Shown in pieces: positions 6,263-62,167 of a stretch of DNA of 64,000 nt. The position numbers were made by a program, and so were the translations under genes. The notes below the pieces were generated by a model. It saw only the letters and a list, made by a program, of their open reading frames with translations, was not told the DNA's origin and searched no databases. The first letter of the stretch is position 1; each line of letters starts with the position of its first letter. The stretch lies in assembly GCF_054482525.1 (NCBI RefSeq), contig NZ_CM137006.1; one strand, written 5' to 3'.

Positions 6263-7482
6263 AAATACTGGTCTACGGCATTAACTACTCGCCGGAGTTA
6301 ACCGGCATCGGCAAATACACCGGAGAGATGGTGGAATGGCTTGCGGCACAAGGTCATGAGGTGCGGGTCATTACCGCACCGCCTTACTACCCGCAGTGGC
6401 AGGTGGGCGAGAACTATTCCGCCTGGCGGTACAAACGAGAAGAGGGGGCCGCTACGGTGTGGCGCTGCCCGCTGTACGTGCCAAAACAGCCGAGCACCCT
6501 GAAACGCCTGTTGCATCTCGGCAGTTTTGCCGTCAGCAGTTTTTTCCCGTTGATGGCGCAACGTCGCTGGAAGCCGGATCGCATTATCGGCGTAGTGCCA
6601 ACGCTGTTTTGCACGCCGGGAATGCGCCTGCTGGCGAAACTCTCTGGCGCGCGTACCGTGCTGCATATTCAGGATTACGAAGTGGATGCCATGCTGGGGC
6701 TGGGCCTTGCCGGAAAAGGCAAAGGCGGCAAAGTGGCACAGCTGGCAACGGCGTTCGAACGTAGCGGACTGCATAACGTCGATAACGTCTCCACGATTTC
6801 GCGTTCGATGATGAATAAAGCCATCGAAAAAGGCGTGGCGGCAGAAAACGTCATTTTCTTCCCCAACTGGTCAGAAATTGCCCGTTTTCAGCATGTCGCA
6901 GACGCCGATGTTGATGCCCTTCGTAACCAGCTTGGCCTGCCGGATAACAAAAAAATCATTCTTTACTCCGGCAATATTGGTGAAAAGCAGGGGCTGGAAA
7001 ACGTTATTGAAGCAGCCGAACGTCTGCGCGATGAACCGCTGATTTTTGCCATTGTTGGGCAGGGCGGCGGCAAAGCGCGGCTTGAAAAAATGGCGCAGCA
7101 GCGTGGACTGCACAACATGCAATTTTTTCCGCTGCAATCGTATGACGCTTTACCCGCACTGCTGAAGATGGGCGATTGCCATCTGGTGGTGCAAAAACGC
7201 GGCGCGGCAGATGCCGTATTGCCGTCGAAACTGACCAATATTCTGGCGGTAGGCGGTAACGCGGTGATTACCGCAGAGGCCCACACAGAACTGGGGCAGC
7301 TTTGCGAAACCTTTCCGGGCATTGCGGTTTGCGTAGAACCGGAATCGGTCGAGGCGCTGGTGGCGGGGATCCGTCAGGCGCTCCTGCTGCCCAAACACAA
7401 CACGGTGGCACGTGAATATGCCGAACGCACGCTCGATAAAGAGAACGTGTTACGTCAATTTATAAATGATATTCGGGGATAA
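6259..7482 (+). CDS. wcaI: Colanic acid biosynthesis glycosyltransferase WcaI (GT4)
   Basis: 407 aa; GT4 fold; synteny between gmm and cpsB. Confidence 0.88.
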
Positions 7483-8921: not shown

Positions 8922-9022
8922 CAGTTGAATAATCAACCGGATTAATTCTCCGGTAAATAACGACAAAAACAAAATTGGCCGTTTCGGTCAGGGCCAACTA
9001 TTGCCTGAAAAAGGGTAACGAC

Positions 9023-10393
9023 ATGAAAAAATTAACCTGCTTTAAAGTCTACGATATTCGCGGGAAATTAGGCGAAGAACTGAATGAAGATATTGCCTGG
9101 CGTATTGGTCGCGCCTATGGCGAATTTCTTAAACCGAAAACCATTGTTTTAGGCGGTGATGTCCGCCTCACCAGCGAAACCTTAAAACTGGCGCTGGCAA
9201 AAGGTTTACAGGATGCGGGCGTCGATGTGCTGGATATTGGCATGTCCGGCACCGAAGAGATCTATTTCGCCACGTTCCATCTCAGCGTGGATGGCGGCAT
9301 TGAAGTTACCGCCAGCCATAACCCGATGGATTACAACGGCATGAAGCTGGTGCGCGAAGGGGCTCGCCCGATCAGCGGCGATACCGGACTGCGCGACGTC
9401 CAGCGTCTGGCAGAAGCCAATGACTTCCCTCCTGTCGATGAAACCAAACGCGGTCGCTATCAGCAAATCAATCTGCGTGACGCTTACGTTGATCACCTGT
9501 TCGGTTATATCAACGTCAAAAACCTCACGCCGCTCAAGCTGGTGATCAACTCCGGGAACGGCGCGGCGGGGCCGGTGGTGGACGCCATTGAAGCCCGCTT
9601 TAAAGCCCTCGGCGCACCCGTGGAATTGATCAAAGTGCACAACACGCCGGACGGGAATTTCCCCAACGGTATTCCTAACCCGCTGCTGCCGGAATGTCGC
9701 GACGACACCCGCAATGCGGTCATCAAACACGGCGCGGATATGGGCATTGCCTTTGATGGCGATTTTGACCGCTGTTTCCTGTTTGACGAAAAAGGGCAGT
9801 TTATCGAGGGCTACTACATTGTTGGCCTGCTGGCAGAAGCGTTCCTCGAAAAAAATCCCGGCGCGAAGATCATCCACGATCCACGTCTCTCCTGGAACAC
9901 CGTTGATGTGGTGACTGCCGCAGGCGGCACCCCGGTAATGTCGAAAACCGGACACGCCTTTATTAAAGAACGTATGCGCAAGGAAGACGCCATCTACGGT
10001 GGCGAAATGAGCGCCCACCATTACTTCCGTGATTTCGCTTACTGCGACAGCGGCATGATCCCGTGGCTGCTGGTCGCCGAACTGGTGTGCCTGAAAGGGA
10101 AAACGCTGGGCGAACTGGTGCGCGACCGGATGGCAGCGTTTCCGGCAAGCGGTGAGATCAACAGCAAACTGGCGCACCCCGTTGAGGCGATTAATCGCGT
10201 CGAACAGCATTTTAGCCGTGAGGCGCTGGCGGTGGATCGCACCGATGGCATCAGCATGACCTTTGCCGACTGGCGCTTTAACCTGCGCTCCTCCAACACC
10301 GAACCGGTGGTGCGGTTGAATGTGGAATCGCGCGGCGATGTACCGCTGATGGAAGCGCGAACGCGAACTCTGCTGACGTTGCTGAACGAGTAA
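9023..10393 (+). CDS. cpsG: Phosphomannomutase (colanic acid copy)
   Basis: ORF 8975..10393; start taken at MKKLTCFK (456 aa); phosphohexomutase active-site TASHNP. Confidence 0.93.
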
Positions 10394-15901: not shown

Positions 15902-17296
15902 ATGCCATTTAAAAAACTCTCCCGACGCACCTTCCTGACGGCAAGCTCGGCGCTTGCCTTCCTCCATACCCCTTTCGCTCGCGCACTTCCCGACCAACAG
16001 AGCGTTAACATTAACGACTACAACCCTCACGACTGGATCGCCTCATTTAAACAAGCCTTCAGCGAAGGGCAAACAGTCGTCGTGCCTGCCGGATTGGTTT
16101 GCGACAATATCAACACCGGCATCTTCATTCCTCCTGGCAAAACGTTACACATCCTTGGAAGCCTGCGCGGCAACGGCAGAGGGCGATTTGTTTTACAGGA
16201 CGGCAGCCAGGTGACAGGGGAGGAGGGCGGCAGTATGCATAACATCACCCTGGATGTGCGTGGTTCTGACTGCACCATCAAAGGGTTGGCGATGAGCGGC
16301 TTTGGCCCGGTAACGCAGATTTATATCGGCGGCAAAAACAAACGGGTCATGCGCAACCTGACCATCGATAACTTGACCGTTAGCCACGCTAATTACGCCA
16401 TTTTACGCCAGGGATTTCATAACCAGATTATCGGTGCCAACATCACCAACTGTAAGTTCAGCGACTTACAGGGCGACGCCATTGAATGGAACGTGGCAAT
16501 TAACGACAGTGATATTTTGATTTCCGACCACATCATCGAGCGCATCAACTGTACTAACGGAAAAATCAACTGGGGCATTGGCATAGGCCTTGCGGGAAGT
16601 ACCTACAATAACAATTACCCGGAAGACCAGACAGTGAAAAATTTTGTTGTGGCGAATATCACGGGATCGGATTGTCGGCAGTTGATACATGTTGAAAATG
16701 GTAAACATTTTGTTATTCGTAATATCAAAGCCCGCAATATCACACCGGATTTCAGTAAGAAAGCAGGTATTGATAACGCCACAGTTGCTATTTATGGTTG
16801 TGACAACTTTGTGATTGATAATATTGAAATGATTAATAGTGCCGGGATGTTAATCGGCTATGGGGTAATTAAAGGCAAATATCTCTCGATACCGCAGAAT
16901 TTCCGGGTGAATAATATTCAACTGGATAATACTCATCTTGCTTATAAATTGCGCGGCATTCAAATCTCCGCCGGGAATGCTGTCTCCTTTGTGGCGCTGA
17001 CTAACATTGAGATGAAGCGTGCGTCGCTGGAGTTACACAACAAACCGCAACATCTTTTTATGCGTAATATCAATGTGATGCAGGAATCCTCAGTTGGACC
17101 CGCATTGAGCATGAACTTCGACATGCGCAAAGACGTACGAGGTGTCTTTATGGCGAAAAAAGAAACACTGCTATCTCTTGCAAATGTTCATGCGGTGAAT
17201 GAAAGAGGGCAAAGCTCTGTCGATATCGACAGGATTAATCACCATATTGTTAATGTGGAAAAGATTAACTTTAGATTGCCGGAACGGAGGGAGTAG
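15902..17296 (+). CDS. wcaM: Colanic acid biosynthesis protein WcaM (secreted, beta-helix-like)
   Basis: 464 aa; N-terminal signal/Tat-like ([13 protein letters not shown]); last gene of wca cluster by synteny. Confidence 0.88.
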
Positions 17297-17453: not shown

Positions 17454-18449
17454 ATGAACGATAACGTTTTGCTCATAGGAGCTTCCGGATTCGTAGGAAC
17501 CCGACTACTTGAAACGGCAATTGCTGACTTTAATATCAAGAACCTGGACAAACAGCAGAGCCACTTTTATCCAGAAATCACACAGATTGGCGATGTTCGT
17601 GATCAACAGACACTCGACCAGGCGTTAGCCGGTTTTGACACTGTTGTACTACTGGCAGCGGAACACCGCGATGATGTCAGTCCTACTTCTCTCTATTATG
17701 ATGTCAACGTTCAGGGTACCCGCAATGTACTGGCGGCCATGGAAAAAAATGGCGTTAAAAATATCATCTTTACCAGTTCCGTTGCTGTTTATGGTTTGAA
17801 CAAACACAACCCTGACGAAAACCATCCACACGACCCTTTCAACCACTACGGCAAAAGTAAGTGGCAGGCAGAGGAGGTGCTGCGTGAATGGTATAACAAA
17901 GCACCAACAGAACGTTCATTAACCATCATCCGTCCTACCGTTATCTTCGGTGAACGCAACCGCGGTAACGTCTATAACTTGCTGAAACAGATCGCTGGCG
18001 GCAAGTTTATGATGGTGGGCGCAGGGACTAACTATAAGTCCATGGCTTATGTTGGAAACATTGTTGAGTTTATTAAGTACAAACTGAAGAATGTTGCCGC
18101 AGGTTATGAGGTTTATAACTACGTTGATAAGCCAGACCTGAACATGAACCAGTTGGTTGCTGAAGTTGAACAAAGCCTGAACAAAAAGATCCCTTCTATG
18201 CACTTGCCTTACCCACTAGGAATGCTGGGTGGATATTGCTTTGATATCCTGAGCAAAATTACGGGCAAAAAATACGCTGTCAGCTCTGTGCGCGTGAAAA
18301 AATTCTGCGCAACTACACAGTTTGACGCAACGAAAGTGCATTCTTCAGGTTTTGTGGCACCGTATACGCTGTCGCAAGGTCTGGATCGAACTCTGCAGTA
18401 TGAATTCGTCCATGCCAAAAAAGACGACATAACGTTTGTTTCTGAGTAA
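17454..18449 (+). CDS. gne: NAD-dependent sugar 4-epimerase (Gne-type; UDP-GlcNAc/GalNAc-related epimerase)
   Basis: 331 aa; N-terminal Rossmann GASGFVG; SDR-like YGKSK; located between wcaM and galF, where K-12 as I recall it has no gene but other E. coli lineages carry gne. Confidence 0.75.
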   Translation: MNDNVLLIGASGFVGTRLLETAIADFNIKNLDKQQSHFYPEITQIGDVRDQQTLDQALAGFDTVVLLAAEHRDDVSPTSLYYDVNVQGTRNVLAAMEKNGVKNIIFTSSVAVYGLNKHNPDENHPHDPFNHYGKSKWQAEEVLREWYNKAPTERSLTIIRPTVIFGERNRGNVYNLLKQIAGGKFMMVGAGTNYKSMAYVGNIVEFIKYKLKNVAAGYEVYNYVDKPDLNMNQLVAEVEQSLNKKIPSMHLPYPLGMLGGYCFDILSKITGKKYAVSSVRVKKFCATTQFDATKVHSSGFVAPYTLSQGLDRTLQYEFVHAKKDDITFVSE

Positions 18450-18691: not shown

Positions 18692-19585
18692 ATGACGAAT
18701 TTAAAAGCAGTTATACCGGTAGCAGGTCTTGGGATGCATATGTTGCCTGCCACTAAGGCGATACCCAAAGAGATGCTACCGATCGTCGACAAGCCAATGA
18801 TTCAGTACATTGTTGACGAGATTGTGGCTGCAGGGATCAAAGAAATCCTCCTGGTAACTCATGCGTCCAAGAACGCGGTCGAAAACCACTTCGACACCTC
18901 TTATGAATTAGAATCTCTCCTTGAACAGCGCGTGAAGCGTCAGCTGCTGGCGGAAGTGCAGTCGATCTGTCCACCGGGAGTGACCATTATGAACGTGCGT
19001 CAGGGCGAACCTTTAGGTTTAGGCCACTCCATTTTGTGTGCGCGACCCGCCATTGGCGACAACCCATTTGTCGTGGTACTGCCAGACGTAGTGATCGACG
19101 ACGCCAGCGCCGACCCGCTGCGCTACAACCTTGCTGCCATGATTGCGCGCTTCAATGAAACGGGCCGTAGCCAGGTGCTGGCAAAACGTATGCCGGGTGA
19201 CCTTTCTGAATACTCCGTTATTCAGACCAAAGAGCCGCTGGATCGTGAAGGCAAAGTCAGCCGCATTGTTGAATTTATCGAAAAACCGGATCAGCCGCAG
19301 ACGCTGGACTCAGACATCATGGCCGTTGGTCGCTATGTGCTTTCTGCGGATATTTGGCCGGAACTTGAACGCACTCAACCTGGTGCATGGGGGCGTATTC
19401 AGCTGACTGATGCCATTGCTGAACTGGCGAAAAAACAGTCCGTTGATGCAATGCTGATGACCGGTGACAGTTACGATTGTGGCAAGAAAATGGGCTATAT
19501 GCAGGCGTTTGTGAAGTATGGACTGCGCAACCTGAAAGAAGGGGCGAAGTTCCGTAAAGGTATTGAAAAGCTGTTAAGCGAATAA
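18692..19585 (+). CDS. galF: UTP-glucose-1-phosphate uridylyltransferase regulatory subunit GalF
   Basis: 297 aa; nucleotidyltransferase motif [23 protein letters not shown]; flanks O-antigen cluster as expected. Confidence 0.95.
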
Positions 19586-19838
19586 TGAAAATCTGACCGG
19601 ATGTAACGGTTGATAAGAAAATTATAACGGCGGTGAGGATTCGTGGGGCTAATTGTACTCATTGCCTCATTCTTTCTTTATACCGTTCTAAATATGAGTA
19701 ACAATAACTTTTCAATAGGCATTTATTGTGGGAGGCTGAGATTTTCTCCATCTCTGAAGCGATTTGGTAAAACGTTCAGAGTTAAGCTTTTCGAACTAAC
19801 CATAACGGTTAATGCTAGTTACAACTAGGACATGCATG

Positions 19839-19877
19839 CAGTACGCTGGTAGCTGTTGAGCCAGGGGCGGTAGCGTG
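19839..19877 (+). promoter_or_regulatory. JUMPstart element with ops site (GGCGGTAGCGTG) for RfaH-dependent antitermination
   Basis: Sequence cagtacgctggtagctgttgagccaggggcggtagcgtg read directly; 39-bp JUMPstart consensus ending in the 12-bp ops motif, ~80 bp upstream of the first O-antigen gene. Confidence 0.85.
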
Positions 19878-19957
19878 AATTAAATGTTTATCCCATATTA
19901 CTTAACAAATTGTAAACTATCGTGCAAAATAAGACTTGTTAAGTACGTAGGCTCGTT

Positions 19958-21193
19958 ATGTTAAAAAACATCATCTATTTATTAAGCGTTCAAGGTGGCA
20001 ATTATATATTTCCATTGGTCACACTGCCTTATCTTGTCAGGATCCTTGAACCTACAGGATACGGGATATATGGGTATAGTTTTGCTGTGGTCCAATATTT
20101 TATATTATTTATTGATTACGGATTTAACTACTCAGCGCCCAAAATCATATCAATATCAAGGGAAAATACTGATTCCATAAGTAAAGTTTTTTGGAATGTA
20201 ACGTTTATCAAAATAATTGCAGCATCTCTTGGTTTGTTAATTATTTATTTAATTTCGGAATTGAATATCATTGATTACCAAATTAAATTTATCATTCTTG
20301 CATACATATCTGTCGTAGGAAATTTAATATATCCAGTATGGTTTTTTCAAGGGCTGGAAAAAATGTTAGGAATAGCGATAAGTATGTTTTCCGCACGCTT
20401 ACTTACACTATGTTTAACATTTTTATTGGTTAAAAGTGAAAAGGATCTTGGTATAGCGATAACAATACAATCATCAATAACAGTTATTGCAGGTATAATA
20501 TCTACATATTTTTTATTTTCTCTTAAAAAAATAATATGGGTACCACCATCCTTATCCAAAATGAAAGAGTTAATTTATGATGGATGGCATTACTTCATTT
20601 CCTCTGCAGCAATAAGCCTTTATACTACTAGTTCAACAATAATATTAGGTGCATTATCAGGAACAACTGCAGTGGGATATTTTATCGCTGCAGATAAAAT
20701 TAGGCTTGCACTACAAGGCGTTATTGGTCCTATAACCCAAGCTGTTTTTCCTAGAGTAACTTATATAATGAAGGATAATCATGACGATGGACTATTATTA
20801 GCCAGGAAAGTGTTTCGATGGCAATTTTCACTGATGTTCGTACTTTCCATATTTCTTTACTTTTTTGCAGACGATATAATTTTAATCATGTATGGAAAAA
20901 CGTATCATGAATCTTTAGAAATACTCAAGGTTTTAGCTTTTACTCCAGCAATAGTTACGGTAAGTAATTATATTGCAATTTTAGTAATGATCCCTATTGG
21001 TATGAAAAAAGAATTTACAAAAATTATTACTACCAGTGGATTAATAGGCCTACTGATAATTACTTATTTGACTAATGAATACTCAGGAGTTGGTACAGCA
21101 ATAGGAGTTATTTCAACTGAGTTTATAATAATGGCGAGATTTTACTTTTTGATTAAGAAAACAAATAAATTAAATAATTTAAATTTATTGTAG
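19958..21193 (+). CDS. wzx: O-antigen flippase Wzx
   Basis: 411 aa, ~12 predicted TM segments, polysaccharide biosynthesis protein family N-terminus; AT-rich; first gene after JUMPstart. Confidence 0.75.
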   Translation: MLKNIIYLLSVQGGNYIFPLVTLPYLVRILEPTGYGIYGYSFAVVQYFILFIDYGFNYSAPKIISISRENTDSISKVFWNVTFIKIIAASLGLLIIYLISELNIIDYQIKFIILAYISVVGNLIYPVWFFQGLEKMLGIAISMFSARLLTLCLTFLLVKSEKDLGIAITIQSSITVIAGIISTYFLFSLKKIIWVPPSLSKMKELIYDGWHYFISSAAISLYTTSSTIILGALSGTTAVGYFIAADKIRLALQGVIGPITQAVFPRVTYIMKDNHDDGLLLARKVFRWQFSLMFVLSIFLYFFADDIILIMYGKTYHESLEILKVLAFTPAIVTVSNYIAILVMIPIGMKKEFTKIITTSGLIGLLIITYLTNEYSGVGTAIGVISTEFIIMARFYFLIKKTNKLNNLNLL

Positions 21194-21201
21194 GGCTAAC
21201 A

Positions 21202-21927
21202 ATGAATAAACCAACTTTAACAATAGTTACCGTTGTGTACAATGGCGAAATGTATATCGAAGATACTATAAAAAGTGTCTTATCACAAAACTGCAATGAT
21301 GACATTGAATATATTATAATTGATGGTGCATCAACGGATAATACTCTAAATATTGTTAATTCTTACAAAAATGAAATTTCATATATCATTTCTGAAAATG
21401 ATAATGGTATATATGATGCAATGAATAAAGGTGTGTTAAAAGCATCTGGAAATTATATAGGATTTATAAACGCTGATGATTTTTATAATAAAGATGTATT
21501 ATGTCAAGTAATAAAAGTAATGAAAGAAAATAAATATGATGTTATTTATGGAAATATGTCTTTGGTAGAGGCTGATAGCTTGGATGTTATTCAGGTCCGG
21601 AGGCCTAAAGACTGGAAACTACATATAGATATGAATTTAAGCCATCCGGCCACATTTATTAGAAAAGATATCCACAGAGAAAATTTATTTAATACTAGCT
21701 ATAAAATTGCTTCTGATTATGATCTTTTGCTAAAATTGAAGAAACAAGGTTATATCTTTCATTATATTGATAAAAATATCTCTTCGATGAGAAATGCCGG
21801 CCTTAGCGCTAAAAATGTAAAATTAGCATTGGAGGAAGCGAGACAAATCCGAAAGAAAAGAAACGGGAAATTATATGCGGCGTTAGCAGATATTTACCTA
21901 TTTATGAGAAAAGTTATAAAAAGATGA
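21202..21927 (+). CDS. Glycosyltransferase family 2 (WcaE-like)
   Basis: 241 aa; motifs IIDGASTDNT and [11 protein letters not shown] shared with WcaE (2355..3101). Confidence 0.8.
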   Translation: MNKPTLTIVTVVYNGEMYIEDTIKSVLSQNCNDDIEYIIIDGASTDNTLNIVNSYKNEISYIISENDNGIYDAMNKGVLKASGNYIGFINADDFYNKDVLCQVIKVMKENKYDVIYGNMSLVEADSLDVIQVRRPKDWKLHIDMNLSHPATFIRKDIHRENLFNTSYKIASDYDLLLKLKKQGYIFHYIDKNISSMRNAGLSAKNVKLALEEARQIRKKRNGKLYAALADIYLFMRKVIKR

Positions 21928-23159
21928 TTAATAGAAACATAAAAATTAGTGCTTCATTTATTTCAATAATTTATTTGCCTTTTGCTTTATTATTAGCAAT
22001 GATTGAAATGATTAATGGGGCCAGATGGAGTGTTTATGTATGTTCATTTATGCTAGGGGTACTAGCATTTTTGTTAATACCTTATGAAAATTGGGATTTG
22101 ACTAGGCATTATGAAACATATTTATATGTTAGTCAAACATCACTAAACAAAGTTTTTGAAAATAGTGACAATAGATATATTACAATAAATACTGTTATTT
22201 ATTTATTTAAATCTTTAGGAATAAAAAAAGAATTTTTACCTTTTTTTTCAACATTTTTATCATATATTTTTTATTTTAATATATATGTTAATCACATTAA
22301 AAAATACAATCCGGAATTATCTCATAGATGTATATATTTATATATTCTAATAAGCGTAATCCCATTTTTTGCTATAGCTAGTTCATTGCGGCAATATCTT
22401 GCATTTAGTATTATGCTTTATATGATCATACAGTATTTCACCAGTGAAAATAATAGGTATAAGTCACAAAAAATTATATTCTCTGCAATTATTTCATGTT
22501 GTATTCATCCCAGCGCAATACTATTGCTAGGTGTTTTTTTTGTTAGCAAATTAATAAGACTTAACAAAACAATATTGTATTTAATAATATTAGTTCTAAT
22601 CCTTAACCATGATGGATTAATATCTTCTTTGCTATTTCAATTGATTAGGCCATTATTGGAAAGCTTAGGTTTTTACTTTCCCGAATATATGGACTCTGTA
22701 ACCATAGGCATAAGCAATAGCTTGCTGAGCACTAATGAATATATCTTGAATAAGATCATATTACCGTCAGTGTTTTTTATTTTTACTTTTATCTATTTAA
22801 TTTTATTTAATAAAAAAATGACGAGGCAAGAGTCACAAATCAAAAATTTTTGCAGTTTACTTCTTTTGCTGATATGCCTTTTATCGTTATCGCCTGATTT
22901 ATTTTATCGATTTTCCATTTTCTGGGTGTTATTATATAGTTATATATTTTTCTCCTACGATATTAATAAAATTAGCAAACTATGTAAGCATCTGATCTTC
23001 TTAATACTCATTACCGCATGTTCAATCATAAATTTGGCACAGGCAAATATGGGTAAAGATATTATTTATGTGTCTTGGTGCGATATATTGTATAAGCCCT
23101 CATTATTCCTATTCAATAAAGAAGTTAAATCAGCAGAATATATAAGAGTGAGTCAATAA
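21924..23159 (+). CDS. wzy: O-antigen polymerase Wzy (putative)
   Basis: 411 aa, very hydrophobic, multiple TM helices, no soluble-enzyme motifs, very AT-rich; typical of Wzy in O-antigen clusters. Confidence 0.6.
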   Translation: MINRNIKISASFISIIYLPFALLLAMIEMINGARWSVYVCSFMLGVLAFLLIPYENWDLTRHYETYLYVSQTSLNKVFENSDNRYITINTVIYLFKSLGIKKEFLPFFSTFLSYIFYFNIYVNHIKKYNPELSHRCIYLYILISVIPFFAIASSLRQYLAFSIMLYMIIQYFTSENNRYKSQKIIFSAIISCCIHPSAILLLGVFFVSKLIRLNKTILYLIILVLILNHDGLISSLLFQLIRPLLESLGFYFPEYMDSVTIGISNSLLSTNEYILNKIILPSVFFIFTFIYLILFNKKMTRQESQIKNFCSLLLLLICLLSLSPDLFYRFSIFWVLLYSYIFFSYDINKISKLCKHLIFLILITACSIINLAQANMGKDIIYVSWCDILYKPSLFLFNKEVKSAEYIRVSQ

Positions 23160-23160
23160 A

Positions 23161-24228
23161 ATGTCCATTGGAGTCTTTAAGCTGTATGAAAATAAAATAG
23201 GTGGCACTGAGAAAGCAGTTGAAAATCTAATTGATATATTAACTAAAAACAGCCTACAAGTGAGATGTTTTTCAGCAATAAACGCACAAGAGATACAAGT
23301 TAGAGAAGATAATCGGAAAACCTACTTATTCCAAGACAATACTGCATATGAAGAAAGCAAATTAAGGTTTTACATTAAATATTTGTTTTTTTTGAGTGCC
23401 AAAAGTAAAGACCTTGAATTAATAATTTCCACGGATATAGCTACATCATCATTATTGTTATTGATTGGTTTTTTTCGGTGTAATAAGAATAAAATTATTT
23501 GCTGGGAACATTATCCATTTGACAAGAATAGTATTTTTTGGAGAAAAGTATTTAAATTTCTTTTGTCTCTTAATAAAAAAGCTGTAGTAGTTTGTAATTC
23601 TCACAAGGAAAAAGATAAGTTTACTTTTTGTAAAAGGGTTGTAATTATACCAAATTCAATCAAAACGCAAAAATATAAGCGCATACATCAAGGAAAAGAA
23701 ACTCTTGATTTGATTTATATTGGTCGGATTGTTAAAGATAAAGGAGTTGAAAGGTTAATTAATGCAGTAATAAATCACCCGTCTACAAAAAAGTATGTTT
23801 TACACATTGTAGGAGGTGGTCAAGAGCTGGAGTATCTCAAATCTAAATATAAGAATAACAACCAAATACACTTTCATGGACCGAGTTTAAACACAGATGT
23901 TTTTTTGGCAAAAAGTGATGTTTTTGTATCCGGTTCATACTTTGAATGTTTTCCTGTTACAATACTTGAAGCTATGTCCTACGGATTACCTGTAATTTCA
24001 ATGGATATATCTGGAGGGACAAGTAGCGTGATTTCTTCATCGGGTGGCGGATTTGTGTGTCAATCTCAAATTGAATTTCAGGAAAAACTAACTTACTTTG
24101 AAGATAATGTTAAACGAACCGAACACGGAAATGCAGGATTCCTATTCGTGAATAGACATTATACAGAAGAAATAGTTAGTGCTCAGTGGATGAGTTTGAT
24201 CAATCGAGCCAATAGTCAAGAAAATTAA
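23161..24228 (+). CDS. Glycosyltransferase family 4 (GT1 fold)
   Basis: 355 aa; C-terminal motif FPVTILEAMSYGLPVIS typical of retaining GT4 enzymes. Confidence 0.75.
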   Translation: MSIGVFKLYENKIGGTEKAVENLIDILTKNSLQVRCFSAINAQEIQVREDNRKTYLFQDNTAYEESKLRFYIKYLFFLSAKSKDLELIISTDIATSSLLLLIGFFRCNKNKIICWEHYPFDKNSIFWRKVFKFLLSLNKKAVVVCNSHKEKDKFTFCKRVVIIPNSIKTQKYKRIHQGKETLDLIYIGRIVKDKGVERLINAVINHPSTKKYVLHIVGGGQELEYLKSKYKNNNQIHFHGPSLNTDVFLAKSDVFVSGSYFECFPVTILEAMSYGLPVISMDISGGTSSVISSSGGGFVCQSQIEFQEKLTYFEDNVKRTEHGNAGFLFVNRHYTEEIVSAQWMSLINRANSQEN

Positions 24229-24248
24229 GGTATTGGAGCTATTAAAGT

Positions 24249-25265
24249 ATGAGCATACTTGTGACTGGTGGGGCTGGCTATATTGGCTCACATGCTATAT
24301 TAACTTTATTGCAAAATGGATATGATGTTATATCGCTAGATAATTATTGCAATTCCTCTCCAAAATCTCTAGAACGAGTAGAGGAAATTTGCTTATCTAA
24401 GATAAAAAAATTACGTGGTGATATTAGAGATAGACATATATTAAAAAATATCTTTTCAAAATATAATGTTTCTACTGTAATGCATTTTGCGGGTTTAAAA
24501 TCTGTTAACGAGTCCATTAAAAAACCATTAGAATATTACGACACAAATCTTTTGGGGACTCTAATATTACTTGATGAAATGCAGAAAGCGAATATTTCTA
24601 ATCTAATTTTTAGTTCGTCTGCTACTGTCTATGGCAATCCTCATTATGTTCCAATATCTGAAAAACACCCTGTCGGTGAGGTGATCAATCCGTACGGTCG
24701 TTCAAAGTTTATGGTGGAACATATATTGCGTGATTTTTGTAACGCGAATAGCGACGCAAATATCACAATACTAAGATATTTTAATCCTGTAGGTGCTCAT
24801 AAGACTGGATTAATTGGAGAAGATCCTTTAGGAACTCCTAATAACCTGTTTCCCTATGTTGCGCAAGTCGCAATTGGAAAATTACCCTATCTAAATGTTT
24901 TTGGTAATAAATATATGACAAAAGATGGAACAGGTGTAAGAGATTATATCCATGTAGTCGATTTAGTTGAGGGGCATCTTGCCGCTTTAAAAAATCTCAA
25001 TAGAAACCGGGGGCTTAAAGTTTTTAATTTAGGCACTGGTCAAGGTTATAGTGTGTTAGATATCATCGACGCTTTTAAACTGGAAACAGGACGCGATATA
25101 CCTTTCCGTATCGTTTCTGAGCGAAATGGAGATGTGGCTGAATGTTGGTCCGATCCTTCCTTAGCAAACGAGCAGCTAAGTTGGGTTGCTAAAAGGACTC
25201 TTAATAATATGGTGGAAGATGCATGGAGATGGCAAACAATGAATCCAAATGGATATAAAGAGTAA
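24249..25265 (+). CDS. UDP-glucose/UDP-galactose 4-epimerase (GalE family) encoded inside the O-antigen cluster
   Basis: 338 aa; TGGAGYIGSH Rossmann motif, SSSATVYG and YGRSK catalytic motifs of GalE-type epimerases. Confidence 0.85.
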   Translation: MSILVTGGAGYIGSHAILTLLQNGYDVISLDNYCNSSPKSLERVEEICLSKIKKLRGDIRDRHILKNIFSKYNVSTVMHFAGLKSVNESIKKPLEYYDTNLLGTLILLDEMQKANISNLIFSSSATVYGNPHYVPISEKHPVGEVINPYGRSKFMVEHILRDFCNANSDANITILRYFNPVGAHKTGLIGEDPLGTPNNLFPYVAQVAIGKLPYLNVFGNKYMTKDGTGVRDYIHVVDLVEGHLAALKNLNRNRGLKVFNLGTGQGYSVLDIIDAFKLETGRDIPFRIVSERNGDVAECWSDPSLANEQLSWVAKRTLNNMVEDAWRWQTMNPNGYKE

Positions 25266-25333
25266 ATTGAAACAATTATAATCATCCATTTCATTGCTTA
25301 CTGTATTGTTATCTATATATATGAAAACAAAAA

Positions 25334-26341
25334 ATGAAAATATTATATGATGGGATTGTGAAAAGTTTACAATCATATGGTGGTATCACTGTATACTTTG
25401 AAGAAATCATTAAGAGATTAAAAAATGACGAATACAAATTCATTCAATTTAATGATAAAAATGAAAATCACAATGATGATCTCCATCGGCCATGCCGGTT
25501 TTTAGAACGATATAGATGTTTTGAAGCATTAAAAAGTGATTCAGATTACAGTATATTTCATTCTACATATTATCGGGTTCCGAAAGATGGGGAATATGCG
25601 GTTGTGACCACGGTCCACGATTTCACATATGAATTGTATATGAAAGGACTTCGGCGCAATGTTCATAGCTTACAAAAAAGATGGGCTGTGAAACATAGCG
25701 ATGCAATCATTTGTGTCTCTAATAATACAGCCAAGGATTTAATTAATTTCTTTAAGGTTGATGAAAAAAAGATACATGTTATTCATAATGGTGTATCGGA
25801 AGATTATAGACACTTAAATCTAGAAAAAGAAAATTTTGTGCTTTTTGTCGGTGCTCGTTCAGGATATAAAAATTTTGAGCTTGCAGTTAAAGCCGTTTCT
25901 AAACTTTTTGATACTAATCTTAAAATAGTCGGCGGAGGTGGTTTAAATAAAGCAGAAATGAAGTTACTATCTGAATATCTTCCAGAAAGATTCCAGTACT
26001 TAGGGAAGGTATCAAATGAAAAACTAAATATATTATATAATTCGGCTTATTGCTTAATCTATCCTTCAGAATATGAAGGGTTTGGAATTCCCTTGCTTGA
26101 GGCTATGCGAACTGGCTGTCCTGTGATAGCCGTAAATAGATCATCAATACCCGAGGTTGTGGGGGATAGTGCGATTTTAGTCGAAGAAGTATCAATTGAA
26201 AGTTTATTCTCAGCTTTATTAAGTGTAGAAGCTAACGCTAATGAATTAAAAAATAAAGGATTAGCGCAATCTAATAAATTTTCATGGGGGAAGTGTTTCT
26301 CCGAAACATATAATCTATATAAATCACTATCTAAGTTTTGA
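25334..26341 (+). CDS. Glycosyltransferase family 4
   Basis: 335 aa; [21 protein letters not shown] motif (E-x7-E). Confidence 0.78.
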
Positions 26342-26351
26342 GAGGTTATTT

Positions 26352-27473
26352 ATGTGTAAGAAAGCTTTAATTACAGGAATTACCGGGCAAGATGGTTCCT
26401 ACTTGGCAGAATTTCTGCTTAAAAAAGGCTATGAGGTTCATGGAATAAAACGTCGATCTTCCTTGTTTAATACTGACCGTATTGATCATATATATCAAGA
26501 CCCACACCATCGTAATTTAAAATTACAACTTCATTATGGTGATTTAACAGATACTTCTAATTTGACTCGGATATTATCTGAAGTTCAACCTGATGAAGTT
26601 TATAATCTTGGCGCAATGAGTCACGTAGCTGTTTCCTTCGAATCCCCAGAATATACAGCTGATGTTGATGCTATAGGTACTTTACGATTATTGGAAGCTA
26701 TTCGTTTTTTGGGATTAGAAAAAAAAACCCGATTTTATCAGGCGTCAACCTCTGAATTGTATGGATTAGTTCAGGAAGTTCCACAAAAAGAGACAACGCC
26801 GTTCTATCCTCGTTCACCTTATGCCGTAGCTAAACTGTATGCATATTGGATCACTGTAAACTATCGTGAGTCTTATGGAATGTATGCATGTAACGGTATT
26901 TTGTTCAATCATGAATCCCCACGTCGTGGGGAAACGTTTGTAACACGTAAAATCACACGTGCTATAGCTAATATATCGCAGGGAATAGAAAAATGCTTAT
27001 ATCTTGGCAACATGGATTCTTTACGCGATTGGGGGCATGCGAAAGATTATGTTCGTATGCAATGGATGATGCTTCAACAAGACCAGCCAGAAGACTTTGT
27101 TATTGCCACCGGCAAACAAATATCTGTACGTGAATTTGTCCGTATGTCTGCTAAAGAAGTTGGACTTGAACTTGAGTTTTCCGGTACTGGTGTTGATGAG
27201 ATTGCATTTGTTGTAAATAAAACATCAGATTGCGCCGTTGGTGTTAATATTGGTGATGTTATTGTTCGCGTTGACCCTCGTTATTTTCGACCAGCAGAAG
27301 TTGAAACTCTTCTTGGTGATCCAACAAAAGCAAAAAATGTCTTGGGTTGGGAGCCAGAGATTACAGTTGAAGAAATGTGTGCAGAAATGGTGGCTAGTGA
27401 TTTAGAAAAAGCTAAACAGCATGCACTTCTTAAAAGCCATGGTTTTGACGTGGCAGTCTCTTTGGAGCGTTAA
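26352..27473 (+). CDS. gmd: GDP-mannose 4,6-dehydratase (O-antigen copy, low GC)
   Basis: 373 aa; protein highly similar to colanic acid Gmd (3691..4812) but with divergent, AT-richer codon usage. Confidence 0.93.
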
Positions 27474-27476
27474 AGT

Positions 27477-28442
27477 ATGACCAAGAAGCGAATTTTTGTG
27501 GCTGGACATCGTGGGATGGTTGGTTCTGCTATTTGTCGTCAATTATTAGCACGTAATGATGTTGAGTTAATTGTCAAAACTCACAAAGAACTCGATTTGA
27601 CAGTTCAAAAGGATGTTGAATGTTTTTTTGAGCAAGAGAGAATAGATCAGGTTTACCTTGCAGCAGCAAAAGTAGGAGGAATTCATGCTAATAACACTTT
27701 TCCAGCTGAATTTATTTATCAGAACCTTCTTATTGAAAGCAATATTATTCACTCATCTTACAAAGCGGGCATAAAGAAACTATTATTCTTAGGGTCAAGT
27801 TGTATCTATCCAAAGTTTGCAGAACAGCCAATGAAAGAATCTGCACTTTTGACGGGAACTCTTGAGCCTACTAATGAGCCTTATGCTATTTCCAAAATAG
27901 CAGGTATAAAGCTATGTGAATCTTATAATCGCCAATATGGATGTGATTATCGCAGTGTAATGCCTACTAACTTATATGGTATGAATGATAATTTTCATCC
28001 CAATAACTCACATGTAATTCCAGCGCTTATGCGGCGTTTTCATGAAGCAAAGGAACTTGGTTTAAATGAAGTGGTTGTCTGGGGAACGGGAACTCCAAAA
28101 CGCGAGTTTTTATATGTTGATGATATGGCCGCTGCATCAGTATATGTGATGGAGCTTGATGATGAAATTTATAAAAAAAATACTCAACCAATGTTATCTC
28201 ATATTAACGTAGGTACTGGTGTTGATTGTTCCATACGTGAAATGGCAGAAACAATGGCTTTAGTTGTTGGCTATGATGGAAAAATTGTTTTTGATATAAC
28301 AAAACCAGATGGTTCGCCTCGTAAACTTATGGATGTTACACGCCTTGAGAATTTGGGTTGGAAATATCGTTATAATTTAAAACAAGGACTAGAATTAACA
28401 TATAAATGGTTTATAAATAATCTTGACTCATTTAGGAGTTAA
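27477..28442 (+). CDS. fcl: GDP-L-fucose synthase (O-antigen copy)
   Basis: 321 aa; paralogue of 4815..5780 with the same motifs. Confidence 0.93.
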
Positions 28443-28444
28443 TA

Positions 28445-28900
28445 TTGAACAAGAGATTAGAAACAGAGTTATTTAAATCAATAGTTGAACATACTCCACT
28501 AATCTCGATAGACCTTATTATAAGAAACGAAGATGGTAAGGCGCTGCTTGGTCAGCGCCTTAATCGTCCAGCACAAAATTATTGGTTTGTGCCGGGGGGA
28601 CGGATTCTTAAAGATGAGTCTTTCGAGAACGCATTCAAAAGAGTTACTTTAGAAGAATTGGGTGTTCAAATTAGCATTAATGAAGCAAAATTTCTTGGGA
28701 TTTATGAACATTTCTACAGCGACAATTTTTCTGGGACTTGTTTTTCAACTCATTATGTCGTACACGGATATGAGATTAGTTTGATGCCACATCAAATTAA
28801 CTATCCAACACTACAACATAGTACTTACAATTGGTTCGATATAGCCGAATTGTTAGCTAATTCCTCAGTTCATCAGTACACAAAAAATTATTTTAAGTGA
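28445..28900 (+). CDS. gmm: GDP-mannose mannosyl hydrolase (O-antigen copy; apparent TTG start)
   Basis: 151 aa; aligns with colanic acid Gmm (NRPAQ.YWFVPGG); no in-frame ATG near the start, TTG at 28445 just after the fcl stop. Confidence 0.8.
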   Translation: MNKRLETELFKSIVEHTPLISIDLIIRNEDGKALLGQRLNRPAQNYWFVPGGRILKDESFENAFKRVTLEELGVQISINEAKFLGIYEHFYSDNFSGTCFSTHYVVHGYEISLMPHQINYPTLQHSTYNWFDIAELLANSSVHQYTKNYFK

Positions 28901-28911
28901 AGGTTATTTAT

Positions 28912-30297
28912 ATGCTACTTCCTGTTGTAATGGCCGGTGGTTCTGGAACTAGATTGTGGCCACTTTCTCGAACACTATATCCGAAGCAATTCCTATCGTT
29001 AACTAGTCGTTTGACTATGCTACAAGAGACCTTAAGAAGGCTTGAAGGGGTTGAACATCGTCCTGCTCTGGTTATTTGTAATGAAGTTCATCGTTTTATC
29101 GTTGCAGAACAGATGCGTAATGTAAATTTAGCGAATAGTGGCATTTTACTAGAGCCGATAGGTCGTAATACAGCCCCCGCAGTTGCGCTTGCTGCTCTTA
29201 AAGCGATTTCATCAGGTGAGGATCCAATACTGCTTGTACTAGCAGCCGATCATGAAATACAAGACCAAAAGCGCTTTATATCGTCAATATTGGCTGCAAA
29301 AGAATTTGCAGAGGAAGGTAAGCTGGTAACTTTTGGTATTGTGCCAACCAAACCCGAAACTGGATATGGCTACATAAAAACCGGAGAAAATTTAAATGAA
29401 TATGGTTTTAAAGTTTCTGCTTTTGTTGAAAAGCCTGAGCTAGATGTGGCCAAAAAATATCTTGAAGATGGAGATTATCTTTGGAATAGTGGAATATTCA
29501 TGTTTAGGGCTTCTGTGTTTATTGATGAGTTGAATAAATTTAGACCAGACATACTAAAAATATGCCAACAAGCATTGAAGTCCTCTACACAAGATCTTGA
29601 TTTTATCCGTATAGATAATGACTCATTTAGTTGTTGCCCTGAAGAATCCATTGATTACGCTGTTATGGAGAAAACAACAGAGGCTGTGGTAGTTCCATTA
29701 AATGCCCACTGGAGCGATGTTGGTTCTTGGTCTGCATTATGGGAAATTAGCAGAAAAGATAAAAGTGGAAATGCAATTAGAGGAGATGTATTAATTCATG
29801 ATTCTTCTGACAGTTATCTTTACTCACAACATAGATTAATTGGTGTAGTAGGAGTTAAAGATTTAGTAGTTGTTGAAACTAAAGATGCTATTCTCGTTGC
29901 GCATAAAGATAAAGTTCAACAGGTAAAAAATATTGTAGAAAAACTTAAAGTTAATAACCGTACGGAATATCTGCAGCATCGTGAAATATTTAGGCCATGG
30001 GGCAGTCATGACTCTATAGCGGAAGGATCTCGATTTGAGGTTAAACATGTCGTTATTCATCCTGGACATAAAACTGCTAAACAGATTCATTACCATCGTA
30101 CTGAGCATTGGATTGTTGTTTCTGGAACAGCAAAAGTCCATTATGAAGATGAAATATTTCTTGTTTCTGAAAATGAATCAACTTATATACCAATAGGTGT
30201 ACCTCATTTTATTGAGAATCCAGGAAAGATCCCTTTGGAGATTATTGAGGTACGTTCAGGTGTCTACTTGGATGAAGATGATGTTGTTAGAATCTAA
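28912..30297 (+). CDS. manC: Mannose-1-phosphate guanylyltransferase (O-antigen copy)
   Basis: ORF 28897..30297; start chosen at [16 protein letters not shown] (ATG 28912) by alignment with CpsB; low-GC paralogue. Confidence 0.9.
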   Translation: MLLPVVMAGGSGTRLWPLSRTLYPKQFLSLTSRLTMLQETLRRLEGVEHRPALVICNEVHRFIVAEQMRNVNLANSGILLEPIGRNTAPAVALAALKAISSGEDPILLVLAADHEIQDQKRFISSILAAKEFAEEGKLVTFGIVPTKPETGYGYIKTGENLNEYGFKVSAFVEKPELDVAKKYLEDGDYLWNSGIFMFRASVFIDELNKFRPDILKICQQALKSSTQDLDFIRIDNDSFSCCPEESIDYAVMEKTTEAVVVPLNAHWSDVGSWSALWEISRKDKSGNAIRGDVLIHDSSDSYLYSQHRLIGVVGVKDLVVVETKDAILVAHKDKVQQVKNIVEKLKVNNRTEYLQHREIFRPWGSHDSIAEGSRFEVKHVVIHPGHKTAKQIHYHRTEHWIVVSGTAKVHYEDEIFLVSENESTYIPIGVPHFIENPGKIPLEIIEVRSGVYLDEDDVVRI

Positions 30298-30368
30298 AAT
30301 GATGCTGGATACTAATGCAACATTATTATTCGTAATGCTGTACTGACGTTATTTAATTATGATTATTA

Positions 30369-31127
30369 TTGGATGTTAAAATGAAAGTCAGTATTATTAC
30401 AGTGACTTATAATAGTGAAAAGACTTTAAGGGATACTTTAGAGTCAATAGAGTTGCAAACCTATAAAGATATAGAGTATATAATTATTGATGGTGGTTCT
30501 ACAGATAATACGTTAAAACTAATTAACGAAGTATCAACAAGAGTAACCAAATGTCTATCAGAAAGCGATAACGGTATCTATGATGCTTTAAATAAAGGTA
30601 TAAATTTATCTACGGGAGATATTATTGGATTCGTTCATTCTGATGACCTTTTAGCAAGACCTGATATTATTGAAACTATTGTAAGCCGTTTCCATGAGAC
30701 AAAAGCGGATGTTGTATACGGTGATTTGGTTTTTTTCGAAAAAAACCAAACTGATATAATCAAACGATACTGGCGTAGTGGTCCTTTTAAACGTTCTAAG
30801 CTATCATTAGGCTGGGCACCACCGCATCCATCTTTCTATATGAGGAGGGAATTATATAAAGACGATGGATATTTTGATTTATCCTATAGGATTGCTGCAG
30901 ACTATGATCAGATGGTCAGGATTTTGAAACGTGATGATATTAAAGTTATTTATGTTCCTCAAGTATTTGTAAAGATGAGATTGGGTGGGGAAAGTACCAG
31001 AATTGATAACGCGATATCAAGTACAAAGGAAATTGTAGAAGTTATGAAAAACCATAATGTAAATTGGAAAATTGCTATCATTATCAGAAAAATCTCAAAA
31101 CTAATGCAATTGTTTGCGCATAAATAA
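30369..31127 (+). CDS. Glycosyltransferase family 2 (WcaE-like), inserted between manC and manB
   Basis: 252 aa; IIDGGSTDNT and DNGIYDALNKG motifs; start may be the internal Met at 30381. Confidence 0.8.
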   Translation: MDVKMKVSIITVTYNSEKTLRDTLESIELQTYKDIEYIIIDGGSTDNTLKLINEVSTRVTKCLSESDNGIYDALNKGINLSTGDIIGFVHSDDLLARPDIIETIVSRFHETKADVVYGDLVFFEKNQTDIIKRYWRSGPFKRSKLSLGWAPPHPSFYMRRELYKDDGYFDLSYRIAADYDQMVRILKRDDIKVIYVPQVFVKMRLGGESTRIDNAISSTKEIVEVMKNHNVNWKIAIIIRKISKLMQLFAHK

Positions 31128-31151
31128 TTTTATTATTGGTAAGGTTTTTAT

Positions 31152-32522
31152 ATGAAAAAATTAACCTGCTTTAAAGCCTATGATATTCGCGGGAAATTAG
31201 GCGAAGAACTGAATGAAGATATTGCGTGGCGCATTGGTCGCGCCTATGGCGAATTTCTCAAACCGAAAACCATTGTGTTAGGCGGTGACGTCCGCCTCAC
31301 CAGCGAAACCTTAAAACTGGCGCTGGCGAGAGGTTTACAGGATGCGGGCGTCGATGTGCTGGATATCGGCATGTCCGGCACCGAAGAGATCTATTTCGCC
31401 ACGTTCCATCTCGGCGTGGATGGCGGCATTGAAGTTACCGCCAGCCATAATCCGATGGATTATAACGGCATGAAGCTGGTTCGCGAGGGGGCTCGCCCGA
31501 TCAGCGGAGATACCGGACTGCGCGACGTCCAGCGTCTGGCTGAAGCCAACGACTTTCCTCCCGTCGATGAAACCAAACGCGGTCGCTATCAGCAAATCAA
31601 CCTGCGTGACGCTTACGTTGATCACCTGTTCGGTTATATCAATGTCAAAAACCTCACGCCGCTCAAGCTGGTGATCAACTCCGGGAACGGCGCAGCGGGT
31701 CCGGTGGTGGACGCTATCGAAGCCCGCTTTAAAGCCCTCGGCGCACCTGTGGAATTGATCAAAGTGCACAACACGCCGGACGGCAATTTCCCCAACGGTA
31801 TTCCTAACCCGCTGCTGCCGGAATGTCGCGACGACACCCGCAATGCGGTCATTAAACACGGCGCGGATATGGGCATTGCCTTTGATGGCGATTTTGACCG
31901 CTGTTTCCTGTTTGACGAAAAAGGGCAGTTTATCGAGGGCTACTACATTGTCGGCCTGCTGGCAGAAGCGTTCCTCGAAAAAAATCCCGGCGCGAAGATC
32001 ATCCACGATCCACGTCTCTCCTGGAATACCGTTGATGTGGTGACCGCCGCGGGCGGCACACCGGTGATGTCGAAAACCGGACACGCCTTTATTAAAGAAC
32101 GTATGCGCAAGGAAGACGCCATCTACGGTGGCGAAATGAGCGCCCACCACTATTTCCGTGATTTCGCTTACTGCGACAGCGGCATGATCCCGTGGCTGCT
32201 GGTCGCCGAACTGGTGTGTCTGAAAGGAAAAACGCTGGGCGAACTGGTGCGCGACCGGATGGCAGCGTTTCCGGCAAGCGGTGAGATCAACAGCAAACTG
32301 GCGCAACCCGCTGAGGCGATTAATCGCGTCGAACAGCATTTTAGCCGTGAGGCGCTGGCGGTGGATCGCACCGATGGCATCAGCATGACCTTTGCCGACT
32401 GGCGCTTTAACCTGCGCTCCTCCAACACCGAACCGGTGGTGCGCCTGAATGTGGAATCGCGCGGTGATGTGCCGCTGATGGAAGAAAAGACAAAACTTAT
32501 CCTTGCGTTATTGAACAAGTAA
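31152..32522 (+). CDS. manB: Phosphomannomutase (O-antigen copy; mosaic, near-identical to cpsG over most of its length)
   Basis: 456 aa; spot comparisons of 60-bp blocks against 9023..10393 show 0-3 mismatches each; only the last ~40-50 bp diverge. Confidence 0.93.
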
Positions 32523-43848: not shown

Positions 43849-43895
43849 TTTCTTATTCCTCTTTAAACCTGTCTGAACCGTTATCAACCGCGCAA

Positions 43896-43930
43896 TAAAA
43901 AAGCCCCCGGAAGATGATCTTCCGGGGGCT
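43896..43930 (-). terminator. his operon attenuator (leader terminator hairpin)
   Basis: Minus-strand reading gives gcccccggaag-loop-cttccgggggc followed by a U-run, between hisL and hisG. Confidence 0.8.
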
Positions 43931-43993
43931 TACTCATGCGTTCATGCACCACTGGAAGATCTGAATGTCTTCCAGCACACATCGCCTGAAAGA

Positions 43994-44044
43994 CTAGTCA
44001 GGATGATGGTGATGATGGTGGTGTTTAAATTGAACGCGTGTCAT
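43994..44044 (-). CDS. hisL: his operon leader peptide (MTRVQFKHHHHHHHPD)
   Basis: Reverse complement read directly: atg aca cgc gtt caa ttt aaa then 7 consecutive His codons, cct gac tag. Confidence 0.95.
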   Translation of the reverse strand: MTRVQFKHHHHHHHPD

Positions 44045-46712: not shown

Positions 46713-46798
46713 AGAAAAATTATTATGACAAGCCTCTCATTCTCTTGTCATTTCCCCCCCATTTAGGCACAATGCGCCGCTGTCAAAAAATGACTAAA

Positions 46799-46830
46799 AA
46801 CCGACGTTTAATTAGCGTCGGTTATTTTTT
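46799..46830 (+). terminator. Rho-independent terminator downstream of yeeY
   Basis: Hairpin aaccgacg...cgtcggtt followed by T6. Confidence 0.6.
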
Positions 46831-46978
46831 GCTTCAAACCAATCATTCATACCAAGAGGCCGGGCTTCGTACCGGATAGATATTTACTAAAAATCGACAG
46901 TTGTTGTCGCTGAGGAATCCAAAAAAATGGGGCAATTTTTTGCTTACGCGACGGTTATCACCGTAAAGGAGAATGACC

Positions 46979-57858: not shown

Positions 57859-57934
57859 TGGCTCCTCTGACTGGACTCGAACCAGTGACATACGGATTAA
57901 CAGTCCGCCGTTCTACCGACTGAACTACAGAGGA
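57859..57934 (-). tRNA. asnV: tRNA-Asn (GUU)
   Basis: 76-nt sequence whose reverse complement is TCCTCTGTAGTTCAGTCGGTAGAACGGCGGACTGTTAATCCGTATGTCACTGGTTCGAGTCCAGTCAGAGGAGCCA; cloverleaf with GTT anticodon and CCA end. Confidence 0.95.
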
Positions 57935-60267: not shown

Positions 60268-60343
60268 TGGCTCCTCTGACTGGACTCGAACCAGTGACAT
60301 ACGGATTAACAGTCCGCCGTTCTACCGACTGAACTACAGAGGA
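60268..60343 (-). tRNA. asnU: tRNA-Asn (GUU)
   Basis: Identical 76-nt sequence to 57859..57934. Confidence 0.95.
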
Positions 60344-62091: not shown

Positions 62092-62167
62092 TCCTCTGTA
62101 GTTCAGTCGGTAGAACGGCGGACTGTTAATCCGTATGTCACTGGTTCGAGTCCAGTCAGAGGAGCCA
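62092..62167 (+). tRNA. asnW: tRNA-Asn (GUU)
   Basis: Third identical copy, opposite orientation to the other two. Confidence 0.95.

Follow-up and report, generated by a model that had tools for sequence, protein, structure and literature searches.

The original 39-bp JUMPstart reportedly goes back to Hobbs and Reeves in 1994, and we take its definition to be a length of about 39 nt with two GGTAGC repeats, the second of which lies within the ops element; the O11 locus described below carries both repeats. A 12-nt ops is found in the leader of all RfaH-controlled operons (Zuber et al. 2018, PMC5995543), where RNA polymerase pauses at C9/U11 and the non-template strand of ops forms a hairpin in which T6 is flipped out and G5 touches RfaH. 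Substitutions in C3-G8 lower or abolish RfaH recruitment and G12C abolishes the pause, recruitment needing bases 3-8 and the pause depending on the T11/G12 region; once activated, RfaH excludes NusG and recruits 30S to leaders without a Shine-Dalgarno sequence (PMC5995543). In CFT073, eight operons each load RfaH at one ops in the leader, and an O-antigen operon headed by wzx is among them (Hustmyer et al. 2022, PMC9765446). There the RfaH ChIP signal begins at ops and is maintained along the operon, RNAP travelling ratios in ΔrfaH fall to 0.1-0.34 of wild type, the RfaH targets all lie under H-NS-StpA filaments, and ops-like sites in coding regions fail to load RfaH (PMC9765446).

We analyzed a 64-kb window (the whole stretch of DNA under study) which contains the E. 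coli O11 O-antigen locus, with positions 19586-21200 being 100% identical to PCN033, SCU-102 and 19KM1776, and with the locus carried by 65 of 5426 complete E. coli genomes. Direct reading of the plus strand at 19839-19877 gives the 39-nt sequence CAGTACGCTGGTAGCTGTTGAGCCAGGGGCGGTAGCGTG, which ends in an exact ops 12-mer (GGCGGTAGCGTG, 19866-19877) that has no other exact copy in the window and is also the only match there to the degenerate ops consensus GGCGGTAGNNTG. The Rfam JUMPstart model RF01707 (gathering score 35 bits) matches exactly the same 39 positions with 57.0 bits (E = 1.9e-10 for the whole window), and the cmscan alignment covers the full model, positions 1-38 of 38. The original prediction had named a 39-bp JUMPstart at this place with an exact ops motif, and it was borne out to the base by both the sequence and the RF01707 coordinates, with the motif search returning GGCGGTAGCGTG and no core mismatch appearing on re-inspection. 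The sense strand, non-template for the operon, carries the ops, which fits the 12-nt consensus GGCGGTAGnnTG. The element sits in the untranslated 372-nt spacer between galF and wzx, 80 nt from the wzx ATG on the same strand and outside any conserved coding ORF; PGAP places no annotation in this spacer, and the small ORFs around JUMPstart occur at chance level only. Identification as a JUMPstart with a consensus ops is thus supported by every available sequence test, and we consider it very probable that 19839-19877 is the JUMPstart/ops leader and RfaH loading site of the O11 O-antigen (rfb/wb) operon (Table 1).

Table 1. Coordinates of the JUMPstart/ops element and of the surrounding features in the window
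Feature	Coordinates	Strand	Evidence
JUMPstart, presumed transcribed leader of O11 operon	19839..19877	+	RF01707, 57 bits; sole cross-genus conserved segment
ops GGCGGTAGCGTG (G1=19866, T6=19871, T11=19876, G12=19877)	19866..19877	+	exact match
Predicted ops pause position U11, RNA polymerase pause and RfaH loading	19876	+	inferred from in vitro mapping, PMC5995543
JUMPstart hairpin CUGGU (19846-19850)/GCCAG (19860-19864), 9-nt loop	19846..19864	+	RF01707 structure line
First GGTAGC direct repeat of JUMPstart	19848..19853	+	sequence reading
Second GGTAGC direct repeat, within ops	19869..19874	+	sequence reading
galF-proximal spacer, common to most E. coli serogroups	19586..19645	+	alignments; BLAST query 1-61, ~97%
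O11-specific upstream leader/promoter region	19646..19838	+	megablast
O11-specific 80-nt leader, ops to wzx start	19878..19957	+	between-serogroup homology ends here
O11 O-antigen operon, presumed RfaH-dependent transcription unit	19958..32522	+	ORFs, PGAP annotation of PCN033
galF, upstream housekeeping flank	18692..19585	+	ORFs, PGAP annotation of PCN033

The gene order comes from the ORFs of the window, labelled after what PGAP annotates in the identical region of PCN033. To the left of the spacer lie the colanic-acid genes up to wcaM (15902-17296), followed by an epimerase gene (17454-18449) and galF. On its right, wzx (19958-21193, Pfam Polysacc_synt) heads a row of 12 co-oriented genes separated by short gaps, in the order wzx, GT2, wzy, GT, galE, GT4, gmd, fcl, gmm, manC, GT2 and manB, with gnd, ugd, wzzB and the his operon beyond manB. 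These 12 genes span 12,565 bp (12.6 kb) at 35% GC overall and 33% for 19958-31127, compared with roughly 50-52% in the flanks, in agreement with the earlier expectation of a long AT-rich operon behind the element. No terminator-like site is predicted between galF and wzx; in and around the operon such sites are no more frequent than in shuffled sequences, and the two plus-strand sites within 19958-31127 are both weak. The Shine-Dalgarno sequence of wzx is likewise weak: it consists of no more than AGG, and its SD:anti-SD energy is -2.6 kcal/mol versus -8.2 for galF and -9.1 for wcaM.

The last gene of the operon, manB (31152-32522), differs in composition from the rest of the O11 cluster (55% vs. 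33% GC) and shares 96.6% identity across 1333 nt with the colanic-acid cpsG (9023-10355) located 22 kb upstream, with which it forms a long direct repeat; PGAP gives the name cpsG to both copies. This near-identity suggests gene conversion, while the gmd-fcl pair of O11 is only ~68% identical to its colanic-acid counterpart. Directly upstream of the colanic-acid cpsG, Rfam reports an algC RNA motif (RF02929, 78 bits, 8969-9018, plus strand), and the same Rfam scan reports no RF02929 match upstream of the nearly identical O11 manB. Elsewhere in the window the scan finds a His operon leader (130 bits, 43895-44018, minus strand), the sRNA STnc240 (46758-46832, plus strand) and three tRNA genes with identical Rfam scores (57862-57934 and 60271-60343 on the minus strand, 62092-62164 on the plus strand), all of them ordinary features of this chromosomal region.

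Conservation of the element was followed both within E. coli and across genera. The galF-to-first-gene spacers that we aligned, from K-12 (O16), O103, O157, NCTC86, CFT073 (O6) and several others, all carry JUMPstart ~220-280 nt past the galF stop codon. All other E. coli O-antigen and group 1 capsule leaders examined (9/9), among them the group 1 capsule leader upstream of wzi, exceed the RF01707 threshold with 40-61 bits, and 5424 of the 5426 complete E. coli genomes contain a relative of a 53-mer centered on JUMPstart, at a median of 2 places per genome. A cross-genus scan with the pattern CCAGGGGCGGTAGCGTG, using one genome per prokaryotic species, yielded at least 120 ops-bearing loci. 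Among the matches listed, most of those from Enterobacterales and Aeromonas also have the 5' half of JUMPstart, and alignments of the O11 spacer to loci of other genera span query positions 254-292, which correspond to 19839-19877. The first ORFs downstream in other genera, again among the matches listed, encode Wza, RmlB, WbaP/AmsG-like sugar transferases and Wzx-type flippases, as well as ABC-2 exporters and a MurJ-like flippase, which fits the name JUMPstart because the element precedes many polysaccharide gene starts. Across the ops loci listed, no O11-type leader was found in another genus: JUMPstart is the only part that is matched, and no donor lineage emerged.

The same comparison turned up several variants of this arrangement. 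In a set of loci from Pantoea, Enterobacter, Acerihabitans and Pluralibacter (L020, L037, L040, L049, L085, L091, L111, L113 and L114), an exact ops follows another conserved upstream sequence, CCTTATGGGCATCGGTTAACGG, in place of the 5' half of JUMPstart, and wherever enough downstream sequence is present a long ORF, reaching ~880 aa at most, begins 15-33 nt downstream. The one such ORF that was scanned, of 884 aa in L040, is ClpB/ClpV-like AAA+ (Pfam AAA_2, ClpB_D2-small). The combination of CCTTATGGGCATCGGTTAACGG, ops and a ClpV-like gene resembles tssH of CFT073, a type VI secretion target of RfaH (PMC9765446). In an rfbB-type leader of E. coli 0H18 (L006, spacer position 341) we observed a natural ops variant, GGCGGTAGCATG, whose G10A change concerns a non-consensus position, one of the two marked 'nn', and leaves the element at 56 bits in Rfam. 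Within the window itself, a second copy of the 8-mer GGCGGTAG lies at 7245-7252 (plus strand) in the coding sequence of wcaI, on the sense strand (context 7245-7263, GGCGGTAGGCGGTAACGCG); we rejected it as an ops site, as its positions 11-12 read GG instead of TG and it stands in translated sequence.

How the 39-mer came to be there, and why it is conserved, could be read in other ways. One would make it a chance GC-rich motif without function, and the shorter motifs do leave some room for this: the degenerate 12-mer is expected 0.11 times per shuffled window and turned up in 11 of 100 shuffles, the ops 12-mer taken alone is weakly significant and moderately improbable, and GGCGGTAG, with two copies in the window (one of them that in wcaI) against 1.34 expected, is not significant. 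The JUMPstart call is significant because it is the whole 39-nt element that matches, rather than the 12-mer or the 8-mer, and the E-value of the full model, the constant syntenic position in every E. coli leader examined and a cross-genus conservation confined to exactly 19839-19877 leave a functionless coincidence with a vanishingly small probability; chance occurrence of the element is effectively refuted. A different proposal accepts the conservation and holds that the 39-mer is kept chiefly as a recombination anchor for swaps of O-antigen clusters, from galF/JUMPstart to gnd, with regulation being secondary. It draws on BLAST comparisons between serogroups, in which homology stops at window positions 19876-19884, just past ops and 0-7 nt from the 3' end of JUMPstart, and on the fact that the 39-mer forms an island of identity with O11-specific DNA on either side. 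However, a length of 39 bp is borderline for exchange by RecA, serogroup-specific DNA in O11 has its left junction at ~19646 and not at JUMPstart, and in many genera the element stands ahead of operons that are unrelated (wza, wzi, ABC-2 exporters), while base-by-base functional data already account for the conservation of ops (PMC5995543). We thus regard a role chiefly in recombination as very improbable.

The 39-mer might instead act mainly as RNA, and its CUGGU/GCCAG hairpin would then control, without RfaH, how stable the mRNA is or how wzx is translated. Rfam does model JUMPstart as RNA that has a stem of 5 bp, and in the cmscan alignment to RF01707 all five pairs are intact in O11, each being standard or G-U; among the matches listed, moreover, the 5' half is kept beyond ops in most Enterobacterales loci, which points to selection on more than ops. 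Marolda and Valvano are also said to have placed JUMPstart in a leader stem-loop in 1998. Folding speaks against such a role, as neither the presumed leader (19712-19975; z = -1.14) nor the isolated 39-mer (z = -1.19) folds exceptionally well compared with shuffles, the minimum free energy (MFE) structure of the 39-mer does not contain the Rfam stem, and the stem is invariant across the E. coli sequences compared and hence carries no covariation information. The published ops mechanism, furthermore, is recognition of the non-template strand at the DNA level (PMC5995543), and ops without the 5' half of JUMPstart exists ahead of ClpV-like genes. An RfaH-independent RNA element is, on balance, unlikely, if less so than a recombination anchor, and RfaH loading at ops is the reading that we carry forward. 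One feature of the O11 variant is that its 5' tail UACGCUG (19842-19848) can pair with the 3' end of ops, UAGCGUG (19871-19877), and this pairing is the MFE structure of the isolated O11 39-mer. An E. albertii locus (L014) shares the variant, and the K-12-type tail, with two differing positions, is by eye apparently unable to form the pairing, which is probably fortuitous.

The original prediction also held that JUMPstart defines the 5' limit of the transcription unit, a statement which is only loosely right: JUMPstart marks a transcribed leader, because ops must be transcribed in order to work, but it is not the 5' limit. A promoter, TTGTTT-17-GAYAAT, is conserved in the CFT073 allele and, at a like position, in the K-12, O157, L007 and L009 alleles, where its -10 hexamer ends 40-81 nt upstream of JUMPstart, and this position fits the O7 promoter and 173-nt leader that Marolda and Valvano reportedly described in 1998. 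It is absent from the O11 allele, whose aligned positions read CCATCT...AACGTT. A rough sigma-70 position weight matrix (PWM) scan recovers this promoter in K-12, O157, L007 and L009; its best O11 site (TTTATA-17-AACAAT, 19677-19705) scores 8.9 bits, below the mean best score of 10.3 in shuffles, and no promoter was called. Consensus promoter counts in the spacer and the whole operon likewise stayed at or below the shuffle expectation, with none supported upstream of JUMPstart. With no PWM candidate beating shuffles, the O11 transcription start site (TSS) is not callable from sequence, and nothing relevant came up when the literature was searched for TSS data on the galF-JUMPstart region. A promoter-like TTAACA-17-CAAAAT is present at 19902-19930, downstream of ops; were this the only active promoter, ops would go untranscribed, which counts against RfaH loading as the best explanation.

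The region between galF and JUMPstart is itself specific to the serogroup. Its 193 nt at 19646-19838 have a megablast match in exactly 65 of the 5426 genomes, the same number that carry the O11 wzx, and are ~70% identical to the K-12-type allele by BLAST. It follows that O11-specific DNA starts at ~19646, which is 193 nt upstream of JUMPstart rather than at JUMPstart, and the alignments thereby present JUMPstart as a conserved island inside O11-specific DNA. Since this O11-specific leader lacks the common promoter, JUMPstart is no proxy for the transcription start or for a recombination junction. Initiation in O11 could come from a weak or atypical promoter or from galF read-through, the latter being possible because no terminator is predicted between galF and wzx. 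Our tentative reading, which we hold at somewhat under an even chance, is that the O11 cluster brought its own leader (19646-19838), conserved only at JUMPstart, and that a different, unrecognized promoter or read-through from galF initiates transcription; under read-through, RfaH would load 250-290 nt past the galF stop codon. If true, O-antigen transcription could begin differently from one serogroup to another under a shared control of elongation. The O11-specific leader without the common promoter is the sole non-routine observation made here, and it concerns initiation, not JUMPstart.

This leader segment almost coincides with a 61-aa ORF (19643-19828, plus strand), which has a GTG start and a hydrophobic N-terminus and ends 11 nt before JUMPstart. 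We rejected it as a gene: it has only a self-match among 5.8 billion proteins and carries no PGAP annotation, and is probably a chance ORF.

Although rfaH itself is not in the window, it is present in 5425 of the 5426 complete E. coli genomes, and since the 65 locus-bearing genomes belong to this set, at most one of them could be without it. Because rfaH is core in E. coli, and because the O6 operon of CFT073 is RfaH-bound and polar in ΔrfaH, the case for RfaH dependence of the O11 operon by analogy is strong, and on grounds of homology only, RfaH-dependent anti-termination would be its best-supported function. Pausing, RfaH binding and RfaH dependence in O11 are here what we infer from identical ops sites elsewhere. 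In the proposed sequence of events, transcription would start within the galF-wzx spacer upstream, or read through from galF, and RNA polymerase transcribing 19866-19877 would pause at U11. The exposed non-template strand would fold into a small hairpin presenting G5/T6, to which RfaH would bind; its C-terminal domain would then refold, and RfaH would be kept on the polymerase across the whole operon. Bound RfaH would exclude NusG, blocking Rho-dependent termination, and would suppress pausing. It may also ease the passage of the polymerase through H-NS filaments on DNA of 33% GC and recruit the ribosome to the wzx start with its weak Shine-Dalgarno sequence. The expected outcome is expression of promoter-distal genes as far as manB, 12.6 kb away.

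On this reading, the O11 locus would have the standard elongation control of E. coli O-antigen, capsule, core-LPS, hemolysin and conjugation operons, and rfaH and ops would be points at which O11 extra-intestinal pathogenic strains, PCN033 among them, could predictably be attenuated. The element is already known, being catalogued (RF01707) and standing at its canonical position in a serogroup locus that has been sequenced and annotated, and the significance of the finding beyond correct annotation is small.

Set against the closest known systems, the functional bases of the O11 JUMPstart/ops, as read from the sequence, show no departure from the known form. The nearest counterpart is the O6 operon of CFT073, which shares with O11 the order galF-JUMPstart-wzx-wzy-...-manB-gnd, with wzx first, and is likewise AT-rich; its JUMPstart is identical to that of O11 in ops, stem and the 3' 20 nt, whereas its upstream leader is of the K-12 type with TTGTTT-17-GACAAT, which O11 is without. 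Compared with K-12 and CFT073, the O11 JUMPstart has four substitutions, at positions 5 and 7 in the 5' tail and at positions 19 and 20 in the loop, none of which falls in the stem (19846-19850/19860-19864) or in ops. In the K-12 rfb (O16) and O7 wb clusters, JUMPstart lies ~255-260 nt past the galF stop codon, similar to O11, with the same ops and 60 bits in Rfam. Their first gene, however, is rmlB/rfbB, with homology between rmlB-type clusters running past JUMPstart, and the 193 nt upstream of JUMPstart in O11 retain ~70% identity to theirs without the promoter hexamers. Relative to RF01707, the O11 element shares the consensus hairpin and the 3' GGCGGUAGCGUG and differs by one inserted loop base from the 38-position model, which is nothing material. 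With respect to the consensus ops of Zuber et al. (2018, PMC5995543), all of the tested bases C3-G8, T11 and G12 match, the O11 site having C3, G4, G5, T6, A7 and G8 together with T11/G12. The distance from ops to the ATG is 80 nt in O11, compared with 40-67 nt reported for wzx, kps and rfa operons (PMC9765446). Finally, related known ops sites are those of the waaQ, hly, kps and tra operons, in which the 5' half of JUMPstart is different or absent and the cargo is other, with the full 39-mer, in contrast to these sites, being common only to O-antigen and capsule loci.
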